DNA of 64,000 nt from Arenicellales bacterium (GTDB lineage: Bacteria > Pseudomonadota > Gammaproteobacteria > Arenicellales > Poriferihabitantaceae), in assembly GCA_965200715.1 (NCBI GenBank), contig OZ241374.1:2917031-2981030 (forward strand), written 5' to 3'. Both the position numbers and the translations under genes were made by a program. The notes under the pieces are model-generated. The model made no database searches. It was not told where the DNA came from and saw only the letters and a program-made list of their open reading frames with translations. Positions within the stretch are counted from its first letter, which is position 1. Every line of letters starts with the position of its first letter. Below are positions 7,815 through 56,058 of the stretch, one piece after another.

Positions 7815-7824
7815 GTTAATTGCT

Positions 7825-32750: not shown

Positions 32751-32781
32751 TGTTTATTCCTCTTAAATATTGAGATCAGCC

Positions 32782-33862: not shown

Positions 33863-34120
33863 TGTTATTTTCCGCAATAAGTCAGAACTCGATTCTCAGA
33901 TTAAATTGAAAGGAATGGGACAGTTTGTCCCGGATTGTGCTGGATAGTTTTGGTTTCTTTTTCCAAGTAGTCATGGTATCCCCATTTGCCGCACTGAAAA
34001 CTGACTGCTTGGAAAAAATAAGCAGCTCAGTCCAGTTTATACCAGAATAGAGGAAAAATCATACTGAATGAATTCGAACCAAAACCACTACTTTCTCTCA
34101 AAATAGTGTGGGAAATAACA
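33863..34120. mobile_element. MITE-like internal-deletion derivative of the TG..CA transposon (left end fused to right end)
   Basis: 33863-33985 matches the left end at 44059-44185. About 33998-34120 matches the right end at 54306-54433. It starts TGTTATTTTCCGC and ends GTGGGAAATAACA. ACCC(T) is present on both flanks (33859-33863 and 34121-34125). Confidence 0.75.
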
Positions 34121-34382: not shown

Positions 34383-34673
34383 ATGATTATTCGCTCTATA
34401 CGCCATCGGGGATTAAAATTGCTGTTTGAAAAGAATTCCACACGGTTGTTAAGACAGGACCAGGTAGTACGGTTGCGAACTGTTTTATTCTCGCTGGAAA
34501 TCGCGGAAAGCATTGAGGATTTCAACAACAATGCCATGCCAGGATGGCGGGTTCACCGGCTGTCAGGAGAACGCCATAATGAATGGAGTATAGCCATATC
34601 GAAGAACTGGCGCATTACCTTTAAAGAATGTGACAATGCAATTGAGCAGTTAAATTTGGAGGACTACCACTGA
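34383..34673 (+). CDS. higB: HigB-like (RelE/ParE superfamily) toxin
   Basis: 96 aa: IRSIRHRGLKLLFE....HRLSGERHNEWSIAISKNWRITF, the typical killer-protein HigB layout. Its stop overlaps the next start (ATGA). Confidence 0.75.
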   Translation: MIIRSIRHRGLKLLFEKNSTRLLRQDQVVRLRTVLFSLEIAESIEDFNNNAMPGWRVHRLSGERHNEWSIAISKNWRITFKECDNAIEQLNLEDYH

Positions 34674-34978
34674 TGACAAAAAGCGGAATCAAAATGGGAA
34701 TGATGCCCCCGCAACCCGGAGAAGTCATTCGGACTGAAATCCTCGAGGAACTTGGATTGAGCGTTTCAGAGGCGGCCCGGATTCTTGGTGTCCGACGTGC
34801 GACGCTGTCGGATTTAGTAAACGGCAATTCCTCTTTATCACCAGAAATGGCGTTACGGATTGAAAAGGCATTCGGACCCAGCATGGACTATCTACTCAAG
34901 ATGCAGGCAATGCATGATGCAGGACAGATGCGGAAGCGCTCCAGCGAGGTGGACATTCAGCGTTATCAGCCGAAATAA
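34673..34978 (+). CDS. higA: HigA-like XRE-family HTH antitoxin
   Basis: PGEVIRTEILEELGLSVSEAARILGVRRATLSDLVNGNSSLSPEMALRIEKAFG is the canonical HigA/VapI HTH. Confidence 0.8.
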   Translation: MTKSGIKMGMMPPQPGEVIRTEILEELGLSVSEAARILGVRRATLSDLVNGNSSLSPEMALRIEKAFGPSMDYLLKMQAMHDAGQMRKRSSEVDIQRYQPK

Positions 34979-35689: not shown

Positions 35690-35998
35690 ACTCAGCCCTC
35701 AAACCGAGACTCCTACCCGTCTACTTGAGCGGGTAGCAGAACCCGGCTCAATGGGAATCTCTCAAGCCCAAATCCAATCCGCTACCATCGCCTCCATCTC
35801 CACTACTTCGAAAGCCGAAATACCATCCGTCCGAGAGCCGACTCCAATTACCGATTGGACCAATCCGGTGCGGACAATAGGGATACCATGACTACTTGGA
35901 AAAAGAAACCAAAACTATCCAGCACAATCTGGGACAAACTGTCCCATTCCTTTCAATTTAATCTGGGAATCGAGTTCTGACTTATTGCGGAAAATAAC
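35690..35998. repeat. Solo inverted copy of the transposon left end (about 310 nt)
   Basis: Reverse complement of 44059-44365, including the CTACCCG..CGGGTAG hairpin. It ends ..CGGAAAATAACA at 35998. Confidence 0.8.
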
Positions 35999-36336
35999 AC
36001 CAGATACAATATAACTCCCATCATTTTCGAAAGTCGAAATATTTACTCGTAGGAGATTGTATAACAGGCGAGATTGCAATATTGTGGAACTGACCTGAGA
36101 ATGACCGTCTGGTCTAAAATGAAGTTGCTTTACTGTTCAGTGGACGTGCTACCCAAAGACATTGGCATGATTTTTCTCGCGATATACTGGAATTTTCTTT
36201 AAAACTCATATATCATGCTATAATTCTATAAGGATACAGTTAGTTATATATTCAATAATTAGTTTTTCTTACTCTAAAAGGCCTTATTTAGTGTCGTATA
36301 TTTGCGCTTAGATGGTATCATTACAGGAGCAGAATT

Positions 36337-36750
36337 ATGGTTCTTAACACCTTGGAAAGCAGGATCAAGTACAGGTTGAGTCGTAGCAGGAACCTAGTGT
36401 TCACGCCCATGGACTTTCTGGACTTGTCAGACCGCGATCAGACAGGCCGTGTTCTACGAAAACTGGTCGCCGAGCAATCACTTGTCAGAATTGCCCGTGG
36501 TTTGTATGCAAAGACCAGGAAATCCTCAGTGACTGGAAAAACTATCCCAGCCCTTCCCTTACCGGTTCTGGCAAGGGAAGGGCTGGCCAAGTTGGGGGCG
36601 CATGTTGTGCCTTCACGTGCCGAGCAGGAATACAACTCTGGCAATACGACACAGGTTCCAACAGGACGTGTAATCGCCATCAGGGGAAAGCGTGTTTCTC
36701 GTAGGATCGGCTTCAATGACAATTACATTGTGCTGGAACGTGCTCCTTGA
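36337..36750 (+). CDS. AbiEi-like (DUF6088) type IV antitoxin
   Basis: 137 aa. LVFTPMDFLDLSDRDQTGRVLRKLVAEQSLVRIARGLYAK matches the AbiEi N-terminal wHTH pattern. Confidence 0.65.
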   Translation: MVLNTLESRIKYRLSRSRNLVFTPMDFLDLSDRDQTGRVLRKLVAEQSLVRIARGLYAKTRKSSVTGKTIPALPLPVLAREGLAKLGAHVVPSRAEQEYNSGNTTQVPTGRVIAIRGKRVSRRIGFNDNYIVLERAP

Positions 36751-37641
36751 CAATGAATTGATCAGCGATGTAGCGTCTGAGCTTAATGTTAACGCATCGT
36801 TCGTAGAGAAAGACTACTACACGGTCAAGGTCGTCCGTGCGATTGCCGGTTACTCACATGATTTGATTACACCTGTATTTTGTGGTGGCACAAGCCTTTC
36901 CAAGGGATATGATATCCTGAAGAGGTTTTCGGAAGACATAGACTTTCGCGCACAATTCAGAGATAGCATCAAGCCAGGCAAGGGCATGCTCAGGACATTC
37001 CGGCATGAAATATGTGATCTGGTTGATCAATAGAGGGAATTACGCTTGACAAGGAGAAGATACGAAAAGGAGGAAGCCATTTCAAAGTTCCATTAACGTA
37101 CCAGCATATCGTAGAAATTTCACCGGTGTTACGTCCGCACCTGCAACTAGACTTCACTTATACACAAGCCCGCTGCGTACCCGAAGAGCGTTCCATATCA
37201 TCCTTTATGGAACAGTTTTCAAGTAATGGTTCCGAGACTCGTATTTTATGTCTGCATCCGGTGGAAACGGCTGCAGATAAATTCTGCGCACTTCTCTGGA
37301 GGGTGAACAAGAGAAACCGGAAGGATGCGAAGGATTATCCTGCCTTGATCAGGCATCTTCACGATCTGCATGATTTAAGGGGTCATATCGGTTCTATGCA
37401 AAAGGAATTCAATGAATTGGTGAATACCTCATTTGCAGCTGATCAGGATACGGCAAGACGCCGAGTCAATATGACACTGTCTGAAACAATTGGGAAGATG
37501 CTTGACAGTTTGAACAGGGATGAACTGTACAAGATGGAATATGATCATTTTGTATTAAGAATGTCTTATGCCAACCAGAAAGATACGACAAGCTTCCGTG
37601 ACGCAATTGATTTCCTTGGCAGTCTGGCAGAAAAATTCTGA
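36716..37641 (+). pseudogene. AbiEii/AbiGii-family nucleotidyltransferase toxin, single frameshift
   Basis: FVEKDYYTVKVVRAIAG..VFCGGTSLSKGYDILKRFSEDIDFR is the DUF1814 core. The frame changes at about 37030-37036 (..LVDQ* then GITLDKEKI.. in the next frame). Confidence 0.7.
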
Positions 37642-39752: not shown

Positions 39753-39982
39753 CCCATTTTCAAGTCAAAAGTCGGCAACACAACCGGTTTTCAGGCCCCC
39801 AAGAACGAAAAATCAATGACTTATAGACAGATTTGCGCCAAAATTAGTCGAAATTTATCAGTTTTTCAGACGAGTTGCGAAGGTCGGGTTAGTTCGTCCT
39901 TGACGCCCTTGAAAGACCCGGCTCGAATCGAAGGTGGAATTGTAGTGTTATCTTTCACATTAATAAACCAGAACGCAATTCC

Positions 39983-40038
39983 CAGATTATTTTGAATTGA
40001 ATGGGACAGTTTGTCCCGGATTGTGCTGGATAGTTTTT
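39983..40038. repeat. Fragment of the transposon left-end repeat
   Basis: ..AATGGGACAGTTTGTCCCGGATTGTGCTGGATAGTTTT matches 44105-44150. Confidence 0.7.
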
Positions 40039-40192
40039 GTATAACTGCTCACACAATATGTGATAAGCAGTTATTGCAAATCATCACCTTTATTTTCTTT
40101 CATAAGTTAACCTTGATCCGCTTTTATTTTGGTCATGACCCGGCTGATCACTTGGCTCGGGAGGCATTGAACCGGCTACGTTATCGGTAGCC

Positions 40193-41533: not shown

Positions 41534-42229
41534 GGGACCGATCCTGTTTCCCAGACGGGGATGACTGTTGACAGAAACATGGGCCCGCCTTCATGAGCCG
41601 AGGTCTCAAGTCTGCATTTCGGTTGTGAAAAATCTACTTGACAGTTACCAGGTACAATCAAAAACTGGATAGCCGGACAATGCAATGCCTTATACCCTAT
41701 ACCACCTCCCGGTACCGATTCCTGTAACAGCATTACTGTTTTTCCCAGTCTATTTCAAAAAGAAGTAGTGGTTTTGCGCCAACCCCAAGTCAATTTAGAG
41801 TCATATTTTCCCAAAAAAGCTTCAAGATGATTCAACATTTTTGGTATTTTAACTAGGGTAACACGAAGTTGATTGATATAAGAATTTTCAGTTCTCCTGC
41901 TGATATTGCGAATATCACAATGGGCAGGATTTTGTTTGTGATTTTTTGATAATCTCAAACATTGTGATCCTGTCATTATTCTTACGAGCACGGATATCTC
42001 CACAATTCAATTGAATATGCTTTTTCTTTCTTAACTGTATCACTGTTGGCCTTCTCTACTTGCCGTGTGGCTATTTTATTGGGCTTATTGTATTGCTTTT
42101 TCAAGATGCAGTAAAACCATGGTTGAGTGAAGAGTATCGCTCTAATGGGATTTCCTTGCGACAATGTCGCAAACCCAACTTGGGTATATCTCGATCACGC
42201 TGTTGCTTTTTTCGGTAAGCCATAAGAGA

Positions 42230-43379: not shown

Positions 43380-44058
43380 TCAGTTTGGGGAACATCCGCT
43401 CCTCCGGGGCGTGGCGTGAATTAAACCGCTACTCGAACGCTTGCTATATTTGTCCAGATACCTGCCAGACACATGTACGTGTGAGCCCCTGATAGACAGT
43501 TTCAACCGAGACCAAAGCCCTTCTAGTGTATTGATGTAGACATCATTGTCTACATACTCTCTTTTTCTGTGATTAACGGTCTTATGGCCATAACCCATTT
43601 TGTTAAGCTTGTTATAGGCCTTCACTCATCGAGAAAGAATGGTCGTTACTTTCCGGATATTCTTCTACATCTCTGGCTTTAACGCCCTACCCTTGGCATT
43701 GGGAACAATCTTGGTGATCACATCACTACCGAGCTCCAACATTCCAATAAGTTGTCAGTTTTTCAGTCGTGTTTCATAACCATTGTTAGCCAGAGCATGG
43801 TAACCTAGATATCTTTGGTTTGAGAGTCCCTGTCTACTCAACATAATAGGATTACGATTTCGCACCCAGTCCAGCTAGGTTCATGATGCACTCGAATCTC
43901 ACTCACGCCCTTTCCCGCCGATCTGAAATCTTCGAAATTTAGCAAGCCATCAAATCAACTACTGCAACTGGCAAAAATCATAGACTTGATGCATGGGTAT
44001 TTCAGTTAATCACTCATCCAAGCGAGACAGTGGTGGACTGAGCTCAACCTGATACTGG
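43380..44058 (-). pseudogene. IS1595-family (ISXO2-like) transposase, decayed C-terminal two-thirds
   Basis: ORF 43380..43625 contains GYGHKTVNHRKREYVDNDVYINTLEGLWSRLK. Upstream, my translation gives IGMLELGSDVITKIVPNAKGRALKPE, interrupted by stops. Confidence 0.55.
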
Positions 44059-44350
44059 TGTTATTTTCCGCAATAAGTCAGAACTCGATTCTCAGATTAA
44101 ATTGAAAGGAATGGGACAGTTTGTCCCGGATTGTGCTGGATAGTTTTGGTTTCTTTTTCCAAGTAGTCATGGTATCCCCATTATCCGCACCGGATTGGTC
44201 CAATCGGTAATTGGAGTCGGCTCTCGGACGGATGGTATTTCGGCTTTCGAAGTAGTGGAGATGGAGGCGATGGTAGCGGATTGGATTTGGGCTTGAGAGA
44301 TTCCCATTGAGCCGGGTTCTGCTACCCGCTCAAGTCGTCGGGTAGGAGTC

Positions 44351-45196
44351 TCAGCCTGCAGTTGAGGTTTTCTGTTGGCTCGGGTTTCGGAGCAGGTCGT
44401 TCCAGTCTTTGGCATTTCCGGGCAGCAGTCTCGAGACTCGAGGATCGGTTTTTAGTGCCTGATAGGCCAGTTGTGCAGGTGGGTCGGCATCGTAGCCACA
44501 CACGATGGTGTTCAGATTCAGGCGATTGAGCCATTCCGGTACGCGATGAGCGAGTCCGGCGGTTGAGACAATCAACTGCTGCTGGGGTGCGATCGGCAGG
44601 CAAGCGACCGACAGTGCATCGATTGCGGATTCGACCAGCAATACCGAGTCGCATTGTGCGGGGTTGCGGGTCGGATCGGTGCTGATCCAGAAGCTACCGA
44701 GTGGTTTACGGGTGCCTTTGGTGAGTCCTTTGAAGGGGTATTGGGGATGGGTGCCGACGAGTTCGGCGCCGATGGCCTGCTGGTGTGCATTGCGCATACA
44801 GAATACCGCATTATTGCGTGAGTCGGCCTCAATCAGTTGTTGACGATGGTACTGTTCAATCAGGTTCGGATGCAGTTTGCGATGCTGACACAGGTAGTGT
44901 TGTACGGTGGACCAGTTTGTTTGGGGTATTGGCATGACCTCGGCGAGTGGTTGCAGCCATTGTAGGGCCTGCTGGAAGGTGCACATGTGGTCATGCATAA
45001 CCAGATCGATGGCACCGCCGCCCCCGCACTGCATGAGGTGATCATAGAACTTACTGCCGTTGATACTAATGATACTGGATGCTTTTTTCCATTTGGCCGG
45101 ATCCCGGGGTGAGCGCTGATAGCCCAGCGCTGTGGCCACCTCGGGTAGCGGTAATTCACGCAGTTGACGGATTTGTGCGGGGGATCGGCGTTTCAT
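44351..45196 (-). CDS. DUF3991/Toprim-domain protein (primase-like)
   Basis: 281 aa. INGSKFYDHLMQCGGGGAIDLVMH.. then LLVESAIDALS..VCGYDAD, a Toprim-like acidic motif. Its ATG overlaps the upstream stop (ATGA). Confidence 0.55.
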   Translation of the reverse strand: MKRRSPAQIRQLRELPLPEVATALGYQRSPRDPAKWKKASSIISINGSKFYDHLMQCGGGGAIDLVMHDHMCTFQQALQWLQPLAEVMPIPQTNWSTVQHYLCQHRKLHPNLIEQYHRQQLIEADSRNNAVFCMRNAHQQAIGAELVGTHPQYPFKGLTKGTRKPLGSFWISTDPTRNPAQCDSVLLVESAIDALSVACLPIAPQQQLIVSTAGLAHRVPEWLNRLNLNTIVCGYDADPPAQLAYQALKTDPRVSRLLPGNAKDWNDLLRNPSQQKTSTAG

Positions 45197-45996
45197 GACT
45201 GGATATCCAGGATGGCGTTTTGCACATCTTCGAGTTGCACCTGGTCGTGATGTTCAATGGCCGCGGCCGACAGGGCCAGATGGGCAATGCGGTCGATGCG
45301 TCGGGGCACTCCGTTGCTGGCCTGGGCGATGGCTTCGATGGCATTGGCCGGGAATAGCGGAATCTCGGCACCGGCCAGTCGCAGACGATGTTCCAGATAG
45401 CGCGGGATTTCCTCAGCTTCGAGACTGCCGATATGACAACGTGCGGTAATGCGCTGGCGGAGCGACTCGAACACATTCATCTCGAGTCGGGCGCGCAATT
45501 CGGTCTGTCCGACCAGGATCAGGCAGAGGCGATATTCCGAATCCATTTGGAAGTTGGTGATCAGGCGCATTTCCTCCAGCGCTTCGGTGCGCAGATAATG
45601 CGCTTCATCGATGACCAGGATGGACAGCTGACGGGCTTCCCGGTGTTGCACCGAGAACTCTTCGCGGAGCGACAGGAAGGCCTGGGCCCGGTGGCGTGCT
45701 GGCGGCACTCCGAAGGCCTGGGCGATGACCTGATACAAATCGAGAATGCTGCCGGTGGTGAGCGACACATAGCGGGGACGATACTCGCCCGAATGCAAAC
45801 CGGCAAACAGCTGACGGCAGACCGTTGACTTACCACAGCCCGGCTCGCCGGTCAACAGGCCAATCCCACCACGGGCTTGCCTCAGTTGACCCAAGCGCAT
45901 CAGGGCTTCCTGCTGACTCTGGCTTTGGAACAGTTGATCCGGGGGCAGGCTGGGTTCAAACGGATAGCGGTTCAAGGCAAAATGGTGCTTATACAT
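45193..45996 (-). CDS. ExeA/TniB-like AAA+ ATPase (transposition helper)
   Basis: MYKHHFALNRYPFEPSLPPDQLF...LLTGEPGCGKST (Walker A) ..LSILVIDEAHYL (Walker B). I trimmed the start to the ATG at 45996, which overlaps the transposase stop. Confidence 0.75.
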   Translation of the reverse strand: MYKHHFALNRYPFEPSLPPDQLFQSQSQQEALMRLGQLRQARGGIGLLTGEPGCGKSTVCRQLFAGLHSGEYRPRYVSLTTGSILDLYQVIAQAFGVPPARHRAQAFLSLREEFSVQHREARQLSILVIDEAHYLRTEALEEMRLITNFQMDSEYRLCLILVGQTELRARLEMNVFESLRQRITARCHIGSLEAEEIPRYLEHRLRLAGAEIPLFPANAIEAIAQASNGVPRRIDRIAHLALSAAAIEHHDQVQLEDVQNAILDIQS

Positions 45997-46785
45997 GGTC
46001 CGGCTCCGTATCGAGTGGGTCTTCGAGTTTGCGAAAGGCAATCGACTGGGTCGGCTGCTGACGCTTGATACGGGTATTGGCTGCCAGATCGACCACGGTG
46101 GCCTGGCCAACCGGTTTGCCCCGGTAGACCACTTGCCGAGGACGTTCGGGCGGTGCCGATGGATCAAACCGCACGGTGACGGTTTCCCCGACCAATACGG
46201 CCTCCACTTCATAGATCACATTTTCGATCTGGATCGTGCGGTCTTTCTTGACCTTGCGCTCGACTTCAAACTGGAACAGATCGCTCAGATCACTCTCGGC
46301 AACCCGGATCTCGGTGCTACACTGCGCCCATTTGTCAAACGGGGTCAGACCCCCGAGTCCATGATGCGGGGTGCGGTGATACTCGCCTTCAACCCAGGCT
46401 CGGAAATGCCGATTCAAGGCCTCGAGACTCTGCAAGTGGCATGCATCGATGCCGCGCAGCACCTGCTGTCGGACCCGCTGCAGATAGCGTTCTATTTTGC
46501 CCTTCCCCGCAGGCTGATAAGGCTTCGCAAACAGGATTGCGGTGCCCAGTTTGGCACACACCAGATCCAGCTGGCGAGAGCGAAAGGTCGACCCGTTATC
46601 GACATACAAGCGCTGCGGAATGCCGCGTCTCTCGACCGCCTGACGGAACACCGTCAGGAAGTCCCGGGCGGTTTCGGAAAAGGCAAACTGGGCATACGGC
46701 ACCACTCGCGTCGCATCATCGATGATCGCCAGTAAATAGGTCTTGCGTAACGTACCTTGCTCGGTTCGGACTTTCATGGCATGCA
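45989..46785 (-). pseudogene. DDE (rve/Mu-like) transposase, C-terminal fragment separated by the RIT insertion
   Basis: ..YLLAIIDDATRVV..LYVDNGSTFRS..KPYQPAGKGKIERY is an rve catalytic core. It continues the frame of 50573..51082 once the insertion is removed. Confidence 0.8.
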
Positions 46786-46882
46786 ATAATGCCGAGTTAA
46801 TAGTAATGCCGAGTAATGAGGAACGAAGCCTTGATTGAAGTGGGTTGAAGCCTATTTTTACTCGGCATTACTGTTGATCTGA

Positions 46883-47872
46883 TTACCCCCCAAGGACTGC
46901 CATTAGTCCGTCCTTGACGCCCTTGAAAGACCCGGCTCGAATCGAAGGCGGAATCGTTGTATGCATGATCTGCAGTTTTTCAGCCGGAGTCGCATTCAGA
47001 TACGCTTCGGTCGATTTGATGCTCGCATGACCCAGCCACAAAGACACCTTACGAATGTCACCTGTCGCATGCAATATCGCCATTGCTGAGGAATGCCGAA
47101 GGCAATGTGGGGTAATGTGCTTGTCGGCCAGCGAGGGAACGAGTTTGCTCGCCTCGGCAACATATTTGCCGAGCAGGTAGGAAACGCCATCGGTACTCAG
47201 TGCGCGACCTCGAGCACTGACAAATAACCAACGGCACTCGAGGGTCGGTCGCACGGCCAACCAGCTACCCAGTGCATCGATGGTCTCGTTCCAAAGTGGT
47301 AGTTCCCGTTCACGCCGACCCTTGCCCATGACCCGTACGCTGCGAAATTCGGGACCGACTAAGCTTTCCAGCGTCATCGAGGTTAACTCGGAAACCCGAA
47401 GCCCAGCGGCATAACACAAGTGGAACATCGCCCGGTCGCGAACGCCGCCGGGTTGTTTGATGTTCGGGGCATCCAGAATCGCTTGCACCTCGTGGGCCTC
47501 CAGCCAATCAATCAGTGGCCTTTCGGTGCGCCTTTGCACAATCGCTTGCACTTGTCTTGCCTGTTCCAGGCAGGTCGGTTCGCGATATTCAAGATAATGG
47601 AAGAATGACTTGACCGATGCCAGTCGAACGTTGCAGGTACTGCGACGGCAGTTTTGCACATGTTCCAGTGAATTCAACCAATCGTACACCAGTGCAGCAC
47701 TGAGTTGTTCGATCTTCAGTTGGCAAGGACGGATACGGTGCTGTTTTGCTGCAAAGCGAACGAGTAGCCGGAAACTGTCGGTATAGCTTTGCACGGTGTG
47801 CTGACTGCAACCCCGCTCATTGGGCAGATGCTGTTGCAGAAAATCGCTCAACAAGGTGGCCAGCTTAGTCAT
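46883..47872 (-). CDS. Tyrosine recombinase (RIT third gene)
   Basis: 329 aa. ..RAMFHLCYAAGLRVSEL.., HCLRHSSAMAIL, LGHASIKSTEAYL (R..HxxR..Y pattern). Confidence 0.85.
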   Translation of the reverse strand: MTKLATLLSDFLQQHLPNERGCSQHTVQSYTDSFRLLVRFAAKQHRIRPCQLKIEQLSAALVYDWLNSLEHVQNCRRSTCNVRLASVKSFFHYLEYREPTCLEQARQVQAIVQRRTERPLIDWLEAHEVQAILDAPNIKQPGGVRDRAMFHLCYAAGLRVSELTSMTLESLVGPEFRSVRVMGKGRRERELPLWNETIDALGSWLAVRPTLECRWLFVSARGRALSTDGVSYLLGKYVAEASKLVPSLADKHITPHCLRHSSAMAILHATGDIRKVSLWLGHASIKSTEAYLNATPAEKLQIMHTTIPPSIRAGSFKGVKDGLMAVLGG

Positions 47873-48785
47873 GGTAACCTCCGAGTCGATTGAAGTGATC
47901 CTGTTCCGTTTGAGCGGCGATCCGGTTCAGCAGTACCGGTGTCGATTGCAGATACCAATAGGTGCTTGCCACCCCGTTGTGTCCCAACGTCGTAGCAAGT
48001 GCCAGAATGTGGCGATTGACGTCGGCACCGGCAGGCAGGTTTTCCAGCGATCGGACGACAAATGAATGGCGCAACGAGTGCAACGTCGGCCGATAACCGG
48101 CCCGTTCATCACGAATTCCCGTGTCTATGGTCAGTCGTCGGAACATGGCTATTGCCTGGGCCGCGCTCGGAGGGCGACCGGAAGCGAGAATGAATAGATG
48201 TTGGTCGGTGCTACCGAGCTGGTTCCGAACCGCAATGTATCGGTTCAGTTGATCGACGGTAGTCGGGGCAAGCACGACGATCCGAGATTTCTTGAATTTG
48301 GTTTCCCGAATGAACAGACCGTCGGGAGCAACATCGTCAAGCGTCAGTCGGATGGCTTCGCCAAGGCGCATTCCGGTAACCGCGACCAGACCGAACAGAC
48401 AATACCAGGTTAACCGAGTGATGGTAGCCGCCGGCGAAATACCGAGGGCCGCCGACAACACGGTTCGAATCTGCTCGACCGACATCAGGTGCGGTGCGGG
48501 TCGAGTGTTCGGGTATGGCCCGAATGCGTCCGCGGGCGGCACTGCATGCCGCGAATCCTCAGCGTGTAGCCAAAGCGCAAAGGAATGCGCGACTCGCAGT
48601 CGCCGCACCCGAGCATAGCGGGAAATCCCTTGCGATGCCCACTCCAACAGAGTGTGTGAGCAGATAAACTCGTCGTTGACTGCAAATCGCACAAACGATC
48701 GGAGGATTTTCGCATGACCTTCGAACCGGTAGCCCAGTTGCTGCTTGGTCTCGACATATCGTCGCACATGATCAGCCAGCTTCAT
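47865..48785 (-). CDS. Tyrosine recombinase (RIT second gene)
   Basis: GMRLGEAIRL, HSLRHSFVVRSL, LGHNGVASTYWYL. I trimmed the start to the ATG at 48785; the ORF track extends to 48848. Confidence 0.8.
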   Translation of the reverse strand: MKLADHVRRYVETKQQLGYRFEGHAKILRSFVRFAVNDEFICSHTLLEWASQGISRYARVRRLRVAHSFALWLHAEDSRHAVPPADAFGPYPNTRPAPHLMSVEQIRTVLSAALGISPAATITRLTWYCLFGLVAVTGMRLGEAIRLTLDDVAPDGLFIRETKFKKSRIVVLAPTTVDQLNRYIAVRNQLGSTDQHLFILASGRPPSAAQAIAMFRRLTIDTGIRDERAGYRPTLHSLRHSFVVRSLENLPAGADVNRHILALATTLGHNGVASTYWYLQSTPVLLNRIAAQTEQDHFNRLGGYHD

Positions 48786-50367
48786 TGCACTCCTCCCCGA
48801 TCCACGCTTGAGCGACTTCCTGCAACATGGTCGTATCGGTTTTCGCATAGATCATGGTGGTTTGAACACTCCTGTGTCGAAGTAACGATGCGATCACCTC
48901 TAACGAAGCACCGGATCGGAGCAGTGTCGTCGCCTGACTATGTCGAAACACATGAGCGCCGCGGTTACCAACAGTCTCGATCCCTGCACGGTCCAGAGCA
49001 CGGTGCGCAATCGAAGTCACGGTGCCCGGATGGCCAAGTGGCCGATACGGCGCACGTGCGGTGTAAAATAACGCTTGTGTAGCTAGGTTCGACTGGTCTT
49101 GCAGCGGGCGCGAGTGGCGGATGTAGTGGCTGATTGCGTCGCCCACATCCTGAGGAAGCGGTAGCACGGTCCAGCACGGTGATTTGCCTAACACACGAAT
49201 CTCGGCCCGATCCCAGTCGATATCGCCGATGCGCAAGGCAACAATATCGCCCGCACGAAGTCCCAACCGTGCAAGCAACAATAATACGGCCCGATTGCGG
49301 ATCCCCACGCGATGGTCCTTACAGGTTGCAATCGCACGTTCGACGTCGTCAGCACTGATGTACTGAGGCAAGGATGCGAGCCGCCACTGTGGGATGGTCG
49401 GCACGGCAGCGAGTAGCGCCGGAGATACGCGGTCTTCGAATACCAAAAAGCGCAGATACATCCGCGTCGCGATTGCGAGTCGCCGGATATAAGGCAAGGA
49501 ACGCCCGCTGGTTAGCCCACCGTTGAATACCTGATGAATCATGGCCGCGTTGTAGGCCTGCGGATTGTCTCCAATTTCCGATTGCAACAAACGTATCAGC
49601 AATCGGTAGCGACGAATCGTCTTTGCCGTGATACCACGATAATGCTCAAGCCAGTTGGCAAAACGCTCCATCTCTTCGGTCATCATGGGCTCATGGTGTG
49701 GTGGCTGCCACCCGCTCACTTCACCAATCTCGATGAGATAATTCACAAAACCAGACACTTCCTTGAGCGAGGCAGGAGTGCAATAACGCCTCCTGAAGCC
49801 ATGGAACATGCCCGGAATGGAACAGACCAGCTGTCTTTCACGAAACTGTTCCAGGGTCTGTTCGGTCAGTTCCGTGAGACGAATTCTTGACCAGTGCAAC
49901 CAGATAATCAGGCTGGACGACGCAGTATGGTAGGGTCGAATAGTCAACTCGGAATAACCACTGGCGCGCAGTCCATCAAGGTATTGGTCGAGTAGCTGGA
50001 AATTGTGCTGCAGGTCGTCTGGCACCGGAACCCGATTGGTGCGTTCAAGGAAGCAGATGAAACGGATTAGGTTCGGTGCAGAACGCCGTTTTCGCCATTG
50101 AGAAAATCCGACGGGTGCCGGAACGCTCGTGATGCATCGGCAGTCATGTTGCAAAAAACGCTCAATGACCGTTGCGTCAATCTGCTCAAGTGCCATGCCG
50201 GACAGTTCAAGCCAGGTGAGAAAATGGCGGATCAGCGGCCTGCTATTCTGTATGCTTGACTTGGCAACCTGCATGGTTTTGAAGTCGTCGGCAAACTCGT
50301 CAATGATCGCATTGAAGTCATCCCGCAACATTGGGGCAACGGGCTGACAATGATGGCTTTTAGACAT
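48772..50367 (-). CDS. Tyrosine recombinase, large (RIT first gene)
   Basis: GLRAGDIVALRIGDID, HVFRHSQATTLL, LRHRSVQTTMIYAK. I trimmed the start to the SD-preceded ATG at 50367. Confidence 0.8.
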   Translation of the reverse strand: MSKSHHCQPVAPMLRDDFNAIIDEFADDFKTMQVAKSSIQNSRPLIRHFLTWLELSGMALEQIDATVIERFLQHDCRCITSVPAPVGFSQWRKRRSAPNLIRFICFLERTNRVPVPDDLQHNFQLLDQYLDGLRASGYSELTIRPYHTASSSLIIWLHWSRIRLTELTEQTLEQFRERQLVCSIPGMFHGFRRRYCTPASLKEVSGFVNYLIEIGEVSGWQPPHHEPMMTEEMERFANWLEHYRGITAKTIRRYRLLIRLLQSEIGDNPQAYNAAMIHQVFNGGLTSGRSLPYIRRLAIATRMYLRFLVFEDRVSPALLAAVPTIPQWRLASLPQYISADDVERAIATCKDHRVGIRNRAVLLLLARLGLRAGDIVALRIGDIDWDRAEIRVLGKSPCWTVLPLPQDVGDAISHYIRHSRPLQDQSNLATQALFYTARAPYRPLGHPGTVTSIAHRALDRAGIETVGNRGAHVFRHSQATTLLRSGASLEVIASLLRHRSVQTTMIYAKTDTTMLQEVAQAWIGEECNEAG

Positions 50368-50572
50368 AAGATATTCTCCGAAATAACCAAGAATATAGCC
50401 TGCCTGTCCGCCGATGTCGAAACGGCATAGCACCAGACAATGGCGAAGAATATGGCCAACAGTAATGCCGAGTAAAAATAGGCTTCAACCCACTTCAATC
50501 AAGGCTTCGTTCCTCATTACTCGGCATTACTATTAACTCGGCATTACTGCATTAATGCCGAGCTCGACATTA

Positions 50573-51082
50573 ATGCAGGACGTCAGCCTGCCATAAGGAA
50601 TTCGATCGCTCATAGGCGAAGCGTCGGCGATCGTGCACCAGCGACTGCTCCGGCGAGACCAGCAGGCCTTCCTGTTCGAACAACCGGTGAATCGTGGTGC
50701 GCGGCAAGGGCACCGCCGCATCGACCCGACCGGATGCATGAGCCTGCTGGATCACCATGCGGGTACTCCAATGCGGATGCTCCTGCTTGAGCGACAGCAA
50801 GATCTCTATCACCTCCGAGTCGAGCTTACGCGGACGCTTGCGGTCCGAGCGGCGTTTCGGCTTGAGCGCCTCAAAACCACCGGCTTTATATTTGACCAGC
50901 CAGTCATACACCGTGCCGGCACCGAGCCGACTCCGGGTCGAGTACGGAATGCGGTACTCCTGCTCGGCAATCTTGCGGATTTCACGCGACACAGACCCGG
51001 CTGGCTCATGCACCAACGGGGCGATGATTCCGAACCGAAATAAGGCAATTTCATGCGCTTTGTCGTGGGCTTGGTCAGACAT
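50573..51082 (-). pseudogene. DDE transposase, N-terminal HTH fragment ending at the RIT junction
   Basis: ..ALFRFGIIAPLV..RTIHRLF..LWQADVLH, then the element-derived stop. WQAD is the start of the catalytic domain. Confidence 0.8.
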
Positions 51083-51177
51083 GATGTTCTCTCCAGTAAA
51101 AACACCGATTGTGCGCCGGATCCCCCCAAATCTCGACTACCATCGAGTGTTGGCAGGCCAAACCCGCTCCTGTCCCA

Positions 51178-51732
51178 TTACGGAGGAAGGTGAAATCCAA
51201 GCGGAATCGACAGCTGCGGCAGCTGCGCTTGACCAAGTTTGCGCAACTCGCACAACACCGCTTCCGATGACAACCACTCGCGGACCTCCACCACCTTGGG
51301 CGGCGTCAGACTGAGCACCAGCAATAATCCCGATAAGGCCGATAAGCACTGATGAACCCGAGTGACTCGACGCTTCAAGGTCCGCCACAGATGCTCCGGA
51401 TGCGGATGGTTCGGGTAGAGAATACGCACCGCCTCCATCAACGACGAGGCCGTCTCGGCTAGCGCAACCTGACGCTCCAGCTCCGCTAACGTACCGCGAT
51501 AGCAACTGGCCAGGAAAATCGGCAGGGCGCTGAAGGTCTTCTGACACCGCTGACAGTACCAGCGAGCGATCTTGATCCCATGCGGATACTTGCGGGTATA
51601 GGTACCATGCTTCTGGGCCCCACATTCCTGACACGATAACCCTTGGCAACACGGCGGCGGCGGTGCCTTTTTCCAACCGGCTGTGCTAACATATTCCTCA
51701 GCGGTTAAATTGGTTATATGTGGATATTGCAT
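51178..51732 (-). CDS. Cys-rich zinc-ribbon-like protein of the transposon
   Basis: MQYPHITNL..CCQGLSCQECG...RWYCQRCQKTF. I trimmed it to the ATG at 51732 because the first 17 codons of ORF 51178..51783 run into the end of the Tn5-like IS. Confidence 0.45.
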   Translation of the reverse strand: MQYPHITNLTAEEYVSTAGWKKAPPPPCCQGLSCQECGAQKHGTYTRKYPHGIKIARWYCQRCQKTFSALPIFLASCYRGTLAELERQVALAETASSLMEAVRILYPNHPHPEHLWRTLKRRVTRVHQCLSALSGLLLVLSLTPPKVVEVREWLSSEAVLCELRKLGQAQLPQLSIPLGFHLPP

Positions 51733-51768
51733 TTGACCGCTCACGGCCCGGCGGTGATGACGCGCGGG

Positions 51769-54185
51769 CTGCCTATTAGCCACAAGTTTTGTCTGGACGT
51801 AAATTCGGATATAGGTATTCCGGATCCAAGCGCTTGAACAGTTCGTAAGCTCGGCCGTAGGCGCCGAGTTCGATATATCCGGTCCAGATCACTTTGTGAC
51901 CGGGCGGTGGGTCGTTTTTCCGGGCCAGATAGCCGCCGAGCATGGCCATGGTCAATACCGCTCGACCCAAATTCGAAGGCGCAGGGCGTTTGCGGTCGAG
52001 GGCAACCAATTCCAGCATGCGGATTTCCAAATGGGAGAATAACACCTCGGCCGGCAACTCCGGCGTGTCCCGTCCCAACAGCACCATCGCATGCAGGCGC
52101 CAGGCAATCACCGCCTTGATCGCAATCGCCCGTTCCAGTCGATCGGCCGTTTGCAGATTCAGGAATTCGGCCTTGCATCCGGATTTCAGGATCCGGTGCC
52201 AGTCCTCAATCCGCCAGCGCAAGCGGTAGTACTCCAGTAGCTGCTCGGCAGCCTCAGCATGCTCGACCGGTAGCGTGGTCAGCAGAAACCATTCCAGCGG
52301 ATCACTGCCATCACGGGGAACCGAGGTCTCCTGTACATGCACCAGGTTCAAGGGCACGCTGGTCGAGCGGGAAGAGCAAGGGTTGGCCAAGATCGTCACT
52401 GCCTGCCAACGCAATTCGCACTCCGCCAGTCGGGCTTCCCGGAACGCTTTCTCCCGCTGTCCCCGGGCCGACCGGCGGGCCGAACTCCGCATCACCTCAA
52501 TTTCCACTCGGGCCTGGGCTGGAGCCTGACGGACCTGGTCAAATAGACGGGCACCCTGCGCACCCAGCACTCGATTATGTCTCGCCCGAAACAGCAAATC
52601 CACATGCTCCAACTGCCGGCATTGTTGGAAGATCTCGTAGGCATCTCCTTCCCGGTCCATGACCGCAATGCAGGACACATCCGGCACCCGTTGTGCCGCT
52701 TGAGCGCTGTCCTGTACACCCCGAATCCAACGCTGGGTCTTGCTCTTTGCATCTTCTCCCGATGGCTCTTTTGGAGACTTTGGAGCATCAAACTCCAGAT
52801 GCATCACCCCCAACGGCACGCCACTCGTCGACACCGCCAGAGTACTGTGCAGATGCAACCCCAGACTGCCTTCGCTAGACTGGTTCTTGCCAATCAGACC
52901 CAGACCTTCACAGGCACCGTGTGTGGCAAAGTTCAGATCCGTTCCGTCTTGGATCAGCAACACCGAAGACTGGTTCGCAATCCGCTCAATGGTCCGCTCA
53001 CGATGCACCGCCAGAATGTTCTCAACCGACACCTCCGACTCGGCCGGATGTTCGATCATCCGGTAAAAACCGGCCACACTCGCCGCGTCCCCTTTGGCCG
53101 CCGCCGGAAACGAATCCATTGGCGATTCCGCCATCCTATGGGCACTCTTGACCAGTCGTTTACTCAATCGTTTATCTCCCAGCGGCGCACCGCCAAATTC
53201 CTGTTCGCTCCAACTCCACCGATCCAAACCCGCGGCCACATCCCGTTTGACGACCTCGGGTGGGCACACCCCCAAAGCCGCTCGCCAGTCGGCGCTCAGT
53301 GGACGACACCAGATGGCCCGTTTCGGCACCCCTTGTCCGGCGGGCGAGAAACGCCCCCGACCGGCCGTTTCACCGACTTTGGTCCAGCCCGCTGCGAGCA
53401 GCGAATGCCCGGTGTGCTGCTGCGCATGCACAAAGGTCTCGACCAGCACCGGACGATAGCCGTAGTGTCGCATAAAATCCTCTCCGAGTCTGCCCACAGT
53501 CTGGGCTAATGCCCACGAGGCGAGATTTTGACAATGCACCTCGGGACGAATCAGAAAGCGGCTGAGATTGGTCACCAAATGCCGCGGCGGATGCCCGGTC
53601 TCCCAACCAATCCACTGATCCCGGGCCTTCAGTAGATAGGCCGAGGCGGAAAATCCCAACCCACCCAGCCAGCCATGCTCCGAACCGATCAGATAGCGCA
53701 TCTGGGCTCCGGCTTGAAACACACTCCCCATCGGGTGTTCCCGGGCCATCAGTTCGTTGAAGATGCGATGCTGGTGATCATCGCAGACCCGAGACACATG
53801 TAACCCCACAATCCGATCCACCCGATCGGGCACCTCGACCGGACTCGGCACGGCCTCCTCCAGCCGTTTCGGATGACCACGAGCCCCGCTACCGGTTGGA
53901 CTGACCGGCAACGAGATCTTGCCCGCCGTCTCGAGTTTCGCCAAGGCTGCACTACAACTGCTGATCCGGGGCAATCCACCGGCATCCTGAAAATCAAACT
54001 GCTCGCACAGGGCCAGGGCTACTTGTCGACGGCTGGTACAGGTCTCTGACTCCAATAGCGCCGAGAGCCAAGACAATCTCTCTGGCTGTAACAGGGTTTC
54101 GCGAATGGGGGTCAGTGCGTCCATGCACCGGAATATAGCCCTTCCGATAAGTTATGTCAAGAGATTATTTGTGTAGAAGAGGCAG
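51769..54185. mobile_element. Tn5/IS50-like IS (IS4 family) with DUF4338-transposase fusion
   Basis: Left end CTGCCTATTAGCCACAAGTTTTGTCTGGAC. The reverse complement of the right end is CTGCCTCTTCTACACAAATAATCTCTTGAC. Flanked by the direct repeat CGCGCGGG (51761-51768 and 54186-54193). Confidence 0.8.
51776..54124 (-). CDS. Tn5-like DDE transposase with N-terminal DUF4338-like domain
   Basis: 782 aa. N-terminal ARDQWIGW..NLSRFLIRP..VLVETFV. C-terminal YYRLRWRIEDWHRILKSGC is the Tn5 YREK-region signature. Confidence 0.85.
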   Translation of the reverse strand: MDALTPIRETLLQPERLSWLSALLESETCTSRRQVALALCEQFDFQDAGGLPRISSCSAALAKLETAGKISLPVSPTGSGARGHPKRLEEAVPSPVEVPDRVDRIVGLHVSRVCDDHQHRIFNELMAREHPMGSVFQAGAQMRYLIGSEHGWLGGLGFSASAYLLKARDQWIGWETGHPPRHLVTNLSRFLIRPEVHCQNLASWALAQTVGRLGEDFMRHYGYRPVLVETFVHAQQHTGHSLLAAGWTKVGETAGRGRFSPAGQGVPKRAIWCRPLSADWRAALGVCPPEVVKRDVAAGLDRWSWSEQEFGGAPLGDKRLSKRLVKSAHRMAESPMDSFPAAAKGDAASVAGFYRMIEHPAESEVSVENILAVHRERTIERIANQSSVLLIQDGTDLNFATHGACEGLGLIGKNQSSEGSLGLHLHSTLAVSTSGVPLGVMHLEFDAPKSPKEPSGEDAKSKTQRWIRGVQDSAQAAQRVPDVSCIAVMDREGDAYEIFQQCRQLEHVDLLFRARHNRVLGAQGARLFDQVRQAPAQARVEIEVMRSSARRSARGQREKAFREARLAECELRWQAVTILANPCSSRSTSVPLNLVHVQETSVPRDGSDPLEWFLLTTLPVEHAEAAEQLLEYYRLRWRIEDWHRILKSGCKAEFLNLQTADRLERAIAIKAVIAWRLHAMVLLGRDTPELPAEVLFSHLEIRMLELVALDRKRPAPSNLGRAVLTMAMLGGYLARKNDPPPGHKVIWTGYIELGAYGRAYELFKRLDPEYLYPNLRPDKTCG

Positions 54186-54433
54186 CGCGCGGGCCACTCT
54201 CTTTCTTCTGAATGGGTGCTCTGTACCTGCCTACACCCGTGCACTCAACGCGCCGTTGAACCGCAACCAACGGGTATATACGATCTGGATGATTAAATCA
54301 TAACTACTGAAAACTGACTGCTTGGAAAAAAGAAGCAACTCAGTCCAGTTTATACCAGAATACAGGAAAAATCATACTGAATGAATTCGAACCAAAAACA
54401 CTACTTTCTCTCAAAATAGTGTGGGAAATAACA

Positions 54434-54601
54434 GCGGGTGTTCAGGAGACAGCTCCTGTCGTGGCCGCAGTGCGGGCACACGAAGCCGTCCGGCCAGCGC
54501 AGCCGGAACAGTGCGTCATGGCACTTGTCCTCGTCTCCGTAATGTTCGAGAAATTCGTTGAGACTGAGGCCTTTCTGGAACTGGACAGGATTTCGCTTCA
54601 T
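54434..54601 (-). pseudogene. IS1595-family transposase, N-terminal zinc-ribbon fragment cut by the transposon right end
   Basis: MKRNPVQFQKGLSLNEFLEHYGDEDKCHDALFRLRWPDGFVCPHCGHDRSCLLNTR. The reading frame then enters the transposon end at 54433. Confidence 0.75.
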
Positions 54602-54881: not shown

Positions 54882-54907
54882 CAGAGGTCGTTTCTGCCGC
54901 GGTGATG
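54882..54907. repeat. Invariant 26-nt porin 5' element
   Basis: CAGAGGTCGTTTCTGCCGCGGTGATG. Confidence 0.9.
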
Positions 54908-55921
54908 TTGCCCATCGGGGCACAAGCGGATGATGGGCTGACCGTCTACGGAAGTATCCGAAATGCGATCGATTTTGTCGATCCAGCGGATCCGGCGGCG
55001 GATTCCACAACCGATATTTCAGCTGTTGGTTCCCGTCTGGGATTCAAAGGCAGTGCTGATCTCGGTAATGGTTTGACCGCACGCGGTCATTACGAGTTCG
55101 GACTAAATACCGATCGGAAGGGTGCCGATCTCAATCACCGGCTTGCTACGGTCGGCGTTTCCGGCGGTTTCGGTAGTATTGATATCGGCAACCAGTGGAG
55201 TGCTTTCTACAACACAACCGGCGTGGACATGGATCCCACTCCGAGATATGGCGGTATTCCCGGAACGCCCTACCGAGCTTCCAACACCATTAAGTATGCC
55301 AATTCAGTTGGCCCCTTGACGGTTGAGGCGGATTTGCGTTTGAACGGCGGTGGCGATGAAGCAGGCACCGATAGCCTGGCCGGTGATGGCGGCGGTCTTG
55401 GAGTTCGGGTTGCGGTTGCCGAAGGGCTTACCCTTGCGGCGGCTTATGACACCGAAGACCGGTCGGATAATCTGAGACATGTGTATACGGCAGCGGTGGC
55501 CGCTCAGCCGGCTAACAATGTGGCCCCGGCAGTTACAGCCAAGGGCGCAGTTACTGGAAGAGGCCCTGAGACCGATCGGGTTGGGGTTTCTGGCAAACTG
55601 GAACTCGGACAGTTCTGGGGAACTCTCGCTTGGAGTTCCAAGAATGTGACCGGAACGGCAACCGATCGATCGGAAAAGGAAACCGAATACACGCAACTAT
55701 TTATCGGTGCAAGCCTGACCGATAACACTTCGGCATGGGTTGGTTACGGACAGAGTGAAACGGAAAGAGAAAAAGAAGAACCAAGCGTTGTGAATGTGGG
55801 ACTTAGCCACAGTCTCGGCGGCGGCATGAGCCTTTTCTACGAGGGTAGGTCTGAGGATACAGATAAGGCTAACCAAGATTCGAAAATTGGGCATTATGTC
55901 GCACTTCGGTTTGATTTCTAA
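54902..55921 (+). CDS. Gram-negative porin family beta-barrel; 5' start unresolved
   Basis: LTVYGSIRNAIDF, GSRLGFKGSADLGNGLTARGHYEF, NTIKYANSVGPLTVEADLRL, C-terminal VALRFDF. Confidence 0.85.
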   Translation: MMLPIGAQADDGLTVYGSIRNAIDFVDPADPAADSTTDISAVGSRLGFKGSADLGNGLTARGHYEFGLNTDRKGADLNHRLATVGVSGGFGSIDIGNQWSAFYNTTGVDMDPTPRYGGIPGTPYRASNTIKYANSVGPLTVEADLRLNGGGDEAGTDSLAGDGGGLGVRVAVAEGLTLAAAYDTEDRSDNLRHVYTAAVAAQPANNVAPAVTAKGAVTGRGPETDRVGVSGKLELGQFWGTLAWSSKNVTGTATDRSEKETEYTQLFIGASLTDNTSAWVGYGQSETEREKEEPSVVNVGLSHSLGGGMSLFYEGRSEDTDKANQDSKIGHYVALRFDF

Positions 55922-56058
55922 CCGATATTGATTTAGAGGAAATAAACAATGAAACAGAAAATATACATAGCGGCCCTATTAGCCGGTATGCTGGCACTCG
56001 CAGGTTGTGGGGGTGGGGGTAGCTCTGGTGGAGGTGGTAATCCTCCGGGGGGCGGACC

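Follow-up and report, generated by a model that had tools for sequence, protein, structure and literature searches.

The 64,000-nucleotide stretch of an Arenicellales bacterium genome analysed here (contig OZ241374.1 of assembly GCA_965200715.1; hereafter the window) carries a transposon that has itself been invaded by other mobile elements (Table 1). All of the transposon genes lie on the minus strand, in the order orf1, which encodes a zinc-ribbon protein, a DDE transposase gene, a gene for an AAA_22 ATPase and a gene for a DUF3991-Toprim protein, followed by a 292-nt arm. This gene set had been recognised in an initial annotation made from the sequence alone, and is borne out by Pfam and by relatives present in multiple copies. 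Translational coupling of the genes by overlaps had also been proposed. This holds for the ATPase and Toprim genes, which overlap by ATGA at 45193-45196, and for the transposase stop and the ATPase start, which overlap by 8 nt, but not for orf1 and a 782-aa open reading frame (ORF) on its upstream side; that overlap is an artefact because the GTG start of the 782-aa ORF lies inside the end of an insertion sequence (IS). The ATPase ORF as first listed, with 339 aa, is an upstream over-extension, relatives aligning from 45996, the true start. The copy has been inactivated twice, by a recombinase-in-trio (RIT) element that splits the transposase gene and by an IS4-family IS at the 5' end of orf1, and is a dead, defective, ordinary nested element. 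The explanation that we favour, with good though not complete confidence, is that the window holds a defective four-gene DDE transposon of the Tn6049 superfamily that carries a predicted compact DnaG-like primase, the four genes of an intact element being arranged as one operon.

Table 1. Coordinates of the transposon, its genes and ends, the elements nested with it and its derivatives in the window
Feature	Position	Strand	Remarks
Whole transposon	44059..54433	-	10,375 bp; ends set by the MITE and the solo arm, homologous to family A/B/C ends
orf1-side arm	54186..54433	-	terminus TGTTATTTCCCACACTATT
orf1, zinc-ribbon protein	51178..~51760	-	weak DUF6431 match; 5' end displaced by the IS
DDE transposase, N-terminal fragment (HTH_32)	50573..51082	-	ends …WQADVLH, directly after the first catalytic Asp
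DDE transposase, C-terminal fragment (rve + Mu-transpos_C)	45989..46780	-	aligns to residues 172-447 of the intact 449-aa L005 transposase
AAA_22 ATPase	45193..45996	-	267 aa; predicted target activator, MuB/TniB/TnsC-like
DUF3991+Toprim_2 protein	44351..45196	-	281 aa; predicted compact DnaG-like primase
Primase-side non-coding arm	44059..44350	-	292 nt; terminal motif and two weaker internal repeats in the outer ~80 nt
MITE	33863..34120	+	258 bp; 132 nt of the primase-side end and 128 nt of the orf1-side end; ACCC duplication
Solo primase-side arm, complete, inverted	35706..35999	-	98% identical; terminus at 35999
Divergent solo primase-side end	39946..40040	+	83%; abuts ritC 3' fragment 39889-39946
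Divergent solo orf1-side end, remnant	41737..41776	-	78%; absent from the initial annotation
RIT element	46781..50572	-	3,792-bp insertion in the transposase gene
ritC	46883-47872	-	within the window RIT
ritB	47865-48848	-	within the window RIT
ritA	48772-50433	-	within the window RIT
RIT inverted repeats	46781-46899 and 50434-50552		119 nt, 90% complementary
IS4-family IS	51769..54185	-	2,417 bp; inverted repeats begin CTGCCT
782-aa IS protein	51776-54124	-	DruA-like N-terminal domain and Tn5-like transposase
IS1595 transposase N-terminus (zinc ribbon, residues 1-56)	54434..54601	-	probably severed by the transposon
Decayed IS1595-family transposase remainder, with stop codons	43380..44058	-	DDE_Tnp_IS1595 domain at ~43440-43763, E 1.1e-20

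The termini of the unit have the format TGTTATTT…AAATAACA. The left terminus reads TGTTATTTTCCGCAATAAG from 44059 and the right terminus, which is the reverse complement of 54415-54433, reads TGTTATTTCCCACACTATT; by hand count the two agree at 14 of 19 positions. The two ends can be assigned to one unit because they are fused in a 258-bp miniature inverted-repeat transposable element (MITE), in which positions 33863-33994 are 98% identical to 44059-44190 and positions 33993-34120 are 97% identical to 54306-54433. The MITE is short and non-coding, joins both ends and lies between two copies of ACCC, a 4-bp target duplication that falls inside the 3-7 bp range of the relatives. A complete solo copy of the primase-side arm, in inverted orientation, aligns over 298 nt (35706-36003 against 44055-44352, 98% identity) and reaches the stop codon of the primase gene. 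Four extra bases, CTGG, that the main copy and the solo arm have in common were considered as part of the element and rejected, the MITE being without them. The transposon is reduced to about 4,158 bp once 2,425 bp are subtracted for the IS and one of its two duplication copies, and 3,792 bp for the RIT insertion.

The initial annotation had described both the transposon, as a TG..CA unit, and the 258-bp element, as its fused ends, and both descriptions stand on the termini found at these positions, on the MITE with its identities and ACCC flanks and on multi-copy relatives with target duplications. The two solo left ends that it listed are present with changed boundaries, the inverted one now comprising the whole arm, and its conserved left arm of some 300 nt is indeed 98% conserved in the solo copy but measures 292 nt, of which the MITE has only the outer 132 nt. 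The identity of 97-98% in the MITE and the solo arm implies fairly recent mobilisation of the ends, in trans.

Relatives of the window Toprim protein number 405 (E ≤ 1e-5) in a protein collection and 414 in a scan of one genome per GTDB species. At least 56 of the 79 loci fetched from GTDB representative genomes contain the colinear transposase-ATPase-Toprim module. Loci are given here and below by their L numbers. Around the relatives from the protein collection, near-identical copies occur at different sites in three families, A (L005-L010), B (L011-L016) and C (L002-L004), each with orf1, a transposase of 449-451 aa, an ATPase of 266 aa and a Toprim protein of 277-306 aa; the family C transposase is split by a RIT. 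The copy boundaries of the relatives enclose 4,138-4,321 bp, with ends TGTT(A/G)…AACA, and matching target duplications were found for all 28 copies examined, of 5 bp in 16, 4 bp in six, 6 bp in four, 7 bp in one and 3 bp in one. These 28 copies also argue against the possibility, allowed for in the initial annotation, that the two end types never occur together around this gene set. Each end has two or three direct repeats of a terminal motif of about 20 bp within about 80 bp, a pattern that stands out in L043 and family B and is fainter in the window. The orf1 products share the pattern C…HGxYxR…RxxC…TxSxLP; a sequence search of the PDB gave no relative of orf1, and a word-indexed protein search gave one homologue alone.

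The host metagenome-assembled genomes (MAGs) are labelled as Paracoccaceae, Rhodobacterales and other Alphaproteobacteria, Ca. Poriferihabitaceae (Gammaproteobacteria), Bryobacterales/Acidobacteria, Chloroflexota and Acidimicrobiales, and at least 14 of the fetched copies come from one Bryobacterales MAG. With its spread over several lineages and its high copy number, the clade is a significant force shaping those genomes. Three copies lie within 15 kb in L087, and in two loci of a Bryobacterales MAG (L088 and L089; CBDCOA010000003.1) full copies have inserted into the transposase gene of a second copy of the same transposon (at about codons 99 and 115). Strong target immunity of the Mu or Tn7 type is argued against by these self-nested copies. 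Scans of JGI metagenome contigs with end-sequence patterns gave two chance matches, without related proteins, and neither the window primase nor P0003 had an exact match on record.

The product of the fourth gene is, as judged from its modelled structure, a compact DnaG-like primase. The AlphaFold (AF2) model has a predicted local distance difference test score (pLDDT) of 92.8, and the top 34 Foldseek hits in the PDB are, all 34, DnaG-type primase structures, including Aquifex DnaG, the cores of E. coli and other bacterial DnaG proteins, T7 gp4, T4 gp61, Twinkle and, at rank 34, the isolated zinc-binding domain of a Bacillus primase (1d0q). The best of these matches covers both the zinc-binding and the RNA-polymerase domains. 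A profile search of the PDB finds E. coli DnaG cores only, and these weakly. Amongst 49 sequences that are 39-55% identical to the window protein, E189 and the two aspartates of a DxD motif, D236 and D238, are invariant, and so is a D-W-N motif; the Toprim domain with its conserved Glu and DxD is preceded by the N-subdomain of an RNA-polymerase domain. In the same sequences no Cys/His quartet of zinc ligands is conserved in the N-terminal domain, where only H53 is nearly invariant. The protein thus resembles the DnaG-type primases of plasmids and phages (RP4 TraC, T7 gp4 and the DUF3991-Toprim domains fused to MobV) in its three-part fold, consisting of a part like a zinc-binding domain, the RNA-polymerase-domain N-subdomain and Toprim, and in the invariant E and DxD. 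It differs from them in being a stand-alone protein of 281 aa with neither zinc ligands nor a helicase-binding domain, and in being encoded in a DDE transposon rather than in a replicon or conjugative element. The initial annotation was right that a Toprim protein is present in a Mu/Tn7-like module, and missed that this is a predicted DnaG-like primase conserved across a large clade. Full-text literature searches returned no paper tying a primase or a DUF3991-Toprim protein to such a transposon, and nothing relevant on DUF6431.

Toprim domains are also used by nucleases such as OLD, and the invariant E…DxD residues fit both chemistries. The protein could in theory be a metal-dependent nuclease that cuts the non-transferred strands, an analogue of TnsA that would give cut-and-paste transposition with a nick-and-join transposase. 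The lack of zinc ligands in an N-terminus that resembles a zinc-binding domain is compatible with this, as is the finding that all 28 examined copies are simple insertions with target duplications and without a resolvase. However, the 34 best structural matches are without exception DnaG-type primases, the PDB profile search finds DnaG only, PADLOC gave no match to Toprim nucleases of the OLD, Gabija or PARIS type, and in a sister clade the gene is paired with one for a helicase-like AAA_25 protein. A nuclease is thus quite improbable, and a primase is the better description of the protein.

Of the contextual arguments for a role in DNA synthesis, the strongest comes from the sister clade, which places a primase fold and a helicase fold within one transposon. 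This second transposon type is about 5.2 kb long (L045-L048, L052, L059, L062, L065 and L067; for example, L048 5796-10984) and encodes a zinc-ribbon ORF, a 523-aa DDE transposase, an AAA_22 ATPase, an AAA_25 (RepA/DnaB-like) protein and a DUF3991-Toprim protein. Its ends read TGAGCGC…GCGCTCA, with duplications of 4-5 bp in four of the seven copies examined. The gene for the 323-aa AAA_25 protein (PF13481, E 3.7e-36) stands between the ATPase and Toprim genes, directly before the latter, and its product matches the helicase parts of phage primase-helicase PHROGs. Judged by reading of the sequences rather than by computed identities, orf1, the transposase and the ATPase of the sister type are nearer Tn6049 than the window family.

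In the mechanism that we propose, the transposase would assemble on the multi-site ends and the ATPase would capture and deliver target DNA, as MuB, TnsC and IstB do. The primase would then prime DNA synthesis at a Mu-type strand-transfer intermediate or, alternatively, prime the copy-out of a figure-eight or circle of the IS3/IS481 type, and the element would lean less on primosome loading by the host. That the primase acts in one of these two ways is a tentative proposal, though one that we take seriously. The broader idea that a Mu/IS481-type DDE lineage brings its own replication priming, with a primase and a RepA/DnaB-like helicase in the sister clade, and dispenses with host PriA/DnaB/DnaG loading, is also possible, if slightly more speculative.

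Several points weigh against this interpretation. Activity and template recognition are uncertain because the N-terminal domain is without the zinc ligands of the DnaG and T7 proteins. The absence of an encoded resolvase fits poorly with replicative transposition that forms cointegrates. The main copy is without an intact target duplication (ACTGG against GCGGG on the plus strand), and no intact copy of the exact window lineage was found, the closely similar copies L001, L102 and L103 being broken as well. The primase gene must be regarded as accessory rather than core because Tn6049 and three-gene relatives apparently transpose without it, and its nearest plasmid homologues, at 30-36% identity, are DUF3991-Toprim domains fused to MobV relaxases, so that the gene may derive from a conjugation-type role and could still serve one.

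The last two of these points also favour an explanation in which the Toprim gene is cargo or an accessory, providing a conjugation-type primase for establishment after single-strand transfer or for replication of an excised circle. Carriage of the gene by two different transposase/ATPase clades likewise suggests a mobile module. Cargo status is nevertheless improbable, given that the gene overlaps the ATPase gene by ATGA both in the window and in L005 (8001-8004), keeps the same position in 56 of the 79 loci and encodes catalytic residues that are invariant at 39-55% identity, whilst no relaxase, oriT or replication initiator is found in the element. If instead the primase does act in transposition, a type of DDE transposon that does its own priming would be defined, and with it a compact four-protein system for asking how replicative or copy-out transposition recruits DNA synthesis. 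Self-priming could also explain the expansion of the clade in distantly related bacterial lineages.

The initial annotation had also suggested that an RNA might be transcribed from the left arm. Such an RNA could be a structured non-coding guide or regulator, or the arm could hold an ssi-type hairpin for recognition by the primase. The solo copy retains the arm with 98% identity as far as the primase stop codon; the window arm contains two hairpins and has a fold z-score of -2.5 against mononucleotide shuffles, and its inner part appears C-rich on the sense strand in several subfamilies when the sequences are read. Against dinucleotide shuffles, however, the z-score is -1.74 for the sense and +0.42 for the antisense strand, and an Rfam scan of the whole window at gathering thresholds gave no match. 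The arms of nine other subfamilies, 144-270 nt long, have z-scores of -1.6 to +0.2 and share no hairpin. Arm length thus ranges over 144-292 nt amongst the subfamilies, and the MITE dispenses with all but the outer 132 nt. The sequence GGGACAAACTGTCCC at 44113-44127 scores as a weak terminator-like hairpin. The RNA proposal is accordingly very unlikely to be correct, and the left arm is best read as putative transposase-binding sites followed by a 3' untranslated spacer. By eye, the sense strand is C-rich and G-poor in the inner arm (44140-44350) and in the arms of L013, L082 and L060.

This copy would have landed in an IS1595 transposase gene and then received the RIT and the IS4-family IS. 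Both IS1595 fragments have the same strand and orientation, and the DDE_Tnp_IS1595 match in the left flank spans profile positions 36-146. The reading frame seems to resume at about codon 56/57 in a hand alignment that carries no statistics, and the spacing from the junction to the domain is about 295 nt, against an estimated expectation of roughly 330 nt. Two features count against insertion into a single IS1595: the expected duplication is degenerate in the orientation of the gene (CCCGC against CCAGT), and the G+C content of the flanks, estimated by reading the sequences, is about 57% against about 44%. The cut of an IS1595 by the right end, as originally annotated, is retained, with residues 1-56 on one side and the decayed remainder to the left, and insertion into one copy is likely rather than proven.

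The IS beside orf1 can be placed in the IS4 family by its DDE_Tnp_1, Tn5 DNA-binding and dimerisation domains, its inverted repeats, which read CTGCCT(C/A)TT…, its target duplication and the presence of copies at different sites. Its 782-aa protein scores 299.9 bits with NF033590 (cut-off 160) and the DruA-like domain matches PF14236 (E 4e-26). The 8-bp duplication CCCGCGCG occupies 51761-51768 and 54186-54193. In L001, a locus of another assembly whose primase is 99% identical to the window primase and whose DNA is 98.8-99.6% identical, a 2.4-kb copy of the IS, 99.6% identical, lies inside the ATPase gene (7284-9699) and not upstream of orf1, with the 8-bp duplication TGCGCGCC; both target sites are GC-rich. 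The Tn5-like IS of the initial annotation is thus a real element, and its own inverted repeats and 8-bp duplications exclude the 782-aa gene as transposon cargo coupled to orf1. L001, L102 and L103, from sample ERZ25067984, are 92-99% identical to the window primase where aligned and are disrupted by the same IS. Several copies of this IS are present in that sample. A stand-alone gene for a DruA-domain protein lies directly beside a family B copy in L012 (4114-5010).

The RIT was correctly annotated as a discrete layer, an insertion in the transposase gene; what had been missed is that such insertions recur in this gene. The window RIT encodes three Phage_integrase proteins, of 553, 327 and 329 aa, from overlapping tyrosine-recombinase genes, and has inverted repeats longer than the roughly 100 bp that marks RITs. 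Known RIT elements have the same three overlapping genes and inverted repeats of about 100-120 bp, and the window RIT is no different in kind. It parts the transposase between …W-Q-A-D-V-L-H and A-M-K-V-R…, after H172 and beside the first catalytic Asp. The sequence TGCAT stands at both junctions and the rejoined target reads …GACGTCCTGCAT/GCCATG…, the slash marking the junction here and below.

In family C and in L040/L041, RITs lie in the transposase gene at V232/D233, the second catalytic Asp, at positions within 1 nt of each other (rejoined target in family C, …TATGTTGAT/AATGGC…), yet the Rit proteins of the two are only 28-32% identical. The window RIT is not at the family C site. Its RitA, RitB and RitC proteins are 38, 45 and 52% identical to those of family C, and a RIT insertion ancestral to both was rejected, as the insertion sites differ. 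Three RITs occupy one transposon copy in L040. Comparison of L002 with L003 and L004 reveals a precise in-situ inversion of a RIT of about 3.7 kb (L002 4854-8563), both orientations being present in one metagenome; the RIT is 99.95% identical amongst the three, against 99.0-99.2% for the transposon flanks. A palindrome of 30-34 bp that includes a duplicated target core is found at one RIT-target junction in all three lineages, namely CTGCATTAATGTCGAG/CTCGGCATTAATGCAG in the window, ATCAACACTATGTAAAG/CTTTACATAGTGTTGAT in L002 and TGCGAATATGTGGCA/TGCCACATATTCGCA in L041.

The window RIT might have inserted by chance, with no tie to the transposon family. The region is a mobile-element graveyard, L027, L058 and L084 have RITs outside the element as well, and the loci were chosen for carrying the transposon, which over-samples RITs near it. 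Chance is nonetheless rather unlikely as an explanation. The same gene is split in family C and in L040/L041 by RITs whose proteins have diverged to 28-32% identity, the window RIT is closer to the family C RIT (38-52%) yet sits at the first Asp, one L040 copy contains three RITs, and the same association was recorded in 2012, with a RIT in tnpA of a Tn6049-related element of Acidithiobacillus ferrooxidans (PMC3414803). Targeting of this transposase gene by RITs is probable, and not proven, because the search covered the surroundings of transposon copies alone. As a secondary reading, RITs would be site-specific hyperparasites that home into the conserved catalytic-Asp codons of this transposase family and undergo inversion in situ. 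Movement of RITs has yet to be reproduced in the laboratory, and their target specificity and movement are untested (PMC10214605). What appears to be new for RITs is the comparative evidence that they have inserted repeatedly at the catalytic-Asp codons of a single transposase family, together with the in-situ inversion and the junction palindromes. With empty and filled sites, two orientations at one site and lox-like junction palindromes, these loci could make RIT mobility testable, and if the secondary reading is true they would be the first natural substrates on which the mechanism of RIT movement could be worked out.

A nesting of the opposite kind is suggested elsewhere in the window, where a 58-nt fragment of the 3' end of ritC (39889-39946), 93% identical to 46903-46960, abuts the divergent transposon end at 39946-39949. 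Here it may have been a RIT that received a transposon of the window family, whereas in the main copy the RIT lies within the transposon.

The transposon and its derivatives are part of a mobile-element island of about 21 kb, bracketed by inverted porin paralogues at 32782-33789 (minus strand) and 54902-55921 (plus strand). A 70-nt inverted repeat, 94% identical, lies at 32699-32768 and 55931-56000. The paralogues and the repeat suggest that the segment was duplicated in inverted orientation or is able to invert. Judged by eye on the translated sequences, a higB/higA-like toxin-antitoxin pair (34383-34978) occupies the interval from the MITE to the inverted solo arm, and AbiEi/AbiEii-like ORFs (36337-37641) lie just past the solo arm.

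Of the known elements, the window transposon is closest in organisation to Tn6049. Tn6049 is 3.5 kb long and is present in 12 copies in Cupriavidus metallidurans CH34, all with the "gspA" ATPase (PMC2864759). Its composition has been given as "Mob prot - TnpA - ATPase - UF" (Table S5 of PMC3414803), its ends as 12-bp inverted repeats with 4-bp direct repeats (PMC4739549), and its transposition module "could not be categorized" (PMC6210171), although elements of this type are abundant. The pMOL28 copy, of 3,517 bp, encodes a 181-aa zinc-ribbon orf1 product, a 479-aa IS481-family transposase, a 277-aa AAA ATPase and a 71-aa ORF, with the duplication TATGG and the end TGTGCATAAGCA. In both elements the first three genes (zinc-ribbon ORF, IS481-like transposase and AAA_22 ATPase) follow the same order on one strand and the termini are short, imperfect repeats opening with TGT. 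Both also duplicate 4-5 bp of the target, reach a high copy number and have a record of a RIT in tnpA. They differ in length, Tn6049 having 3.5 kb and the window clade 4.1-4.3 kb (about 4.16 kb for the window element), and in the fourth gene, which is an ORF of 65-71 aa in Tn6049 and encodes a predicted DnaG-like primase of 281-306 aa in the window clade.

The proteins have also diverged to identities of only 24-31%. In blastp comparisons with Tn6049 TnpA, the two window transposase fragments gave 24% (E 2e-9) and 31% (E 3e-22), and the ATPases gave 30% (E 3e-24), whilst the orf1 products gave no match at E 0.01. Closer three-gene relatives, about 39-41% identical to the family A transposase, are found on plasmids of Acidithiobacillus caldus, C. 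necator and Geobacillus, and have a DUF6431 gene and no Toprim gene. On these comparisons the window element is therefore a member of the Tn6049 superfamily with a different fourth gene.

The intact family A transposase has IS481 as its best NCBIfam model (NF033577), with 199.6 bits, below the cut-off of 224. IS481 elements have TGT termini and a variable duplication length, according to ISfinder descriptions, and the duplication length of IS21 varies in the same way. The window-type element is set apart from the IS481 family by its four co-oriented, partly overlapping genes, IS481 being a single-gene family. The PDB relatives of the transposase are TnsB of CRISPR-associated transposons (E 2.8e-6, a weak best match), retroviral integrases and IstA of IS21, and its best PHROG is 310, a phage transposase family (E 1.6e-42). 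For the ATPase, the best PDB relative is MuB (8xvb, E 0.002) and PHROG 296, 'DNA transposition protein', matches with E 1e-28; the TniB Pfam score of 21.7 in the window is below the cut-off of 22.4. These profiles make the transposase IS481/TnsB/MuA-like and the ATPase MuB-like, in keeping with the Mu- and Tn7-type classes considered in the initial annotation, which overlooked that the module is of the Tn6049 type.

The pairs MuA/MuB, TnsB/TnsC of Tn7, TniA/TniB of Tn5053 and IstA/IstB of IS21 have in common with the window clade an rve-fold transposase with a Mu-type C-terminal domain, an AAA+ partner, TG…CA termini, several repeats of the transposase site per end and a duplication centred on 5 bp. 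In the window element no TnsA, TniQ, resolvase or phage genes were detected, Pfam and NCBIfam scans giving no TniQ, TnsA or resolvase domain in any ORF, and it cannot be assigned to Tn7 or Tn5053; the duplication in those elements is fixed at 5 bp, whereas that of the window clade varies from 3 to 7 bp. To our knowledge, none of Mu, Tn7, Tn5053 and IS21 encodes a primase in its transposition module. The features that seem to be new are a conserved DnaG-like primase, its helicase partner in the sister clade and recurrent, invertible RIT insertions at catalytic codons, and the primase-carrying branch of the Tn6049 family is widespread and apparently undescribed.

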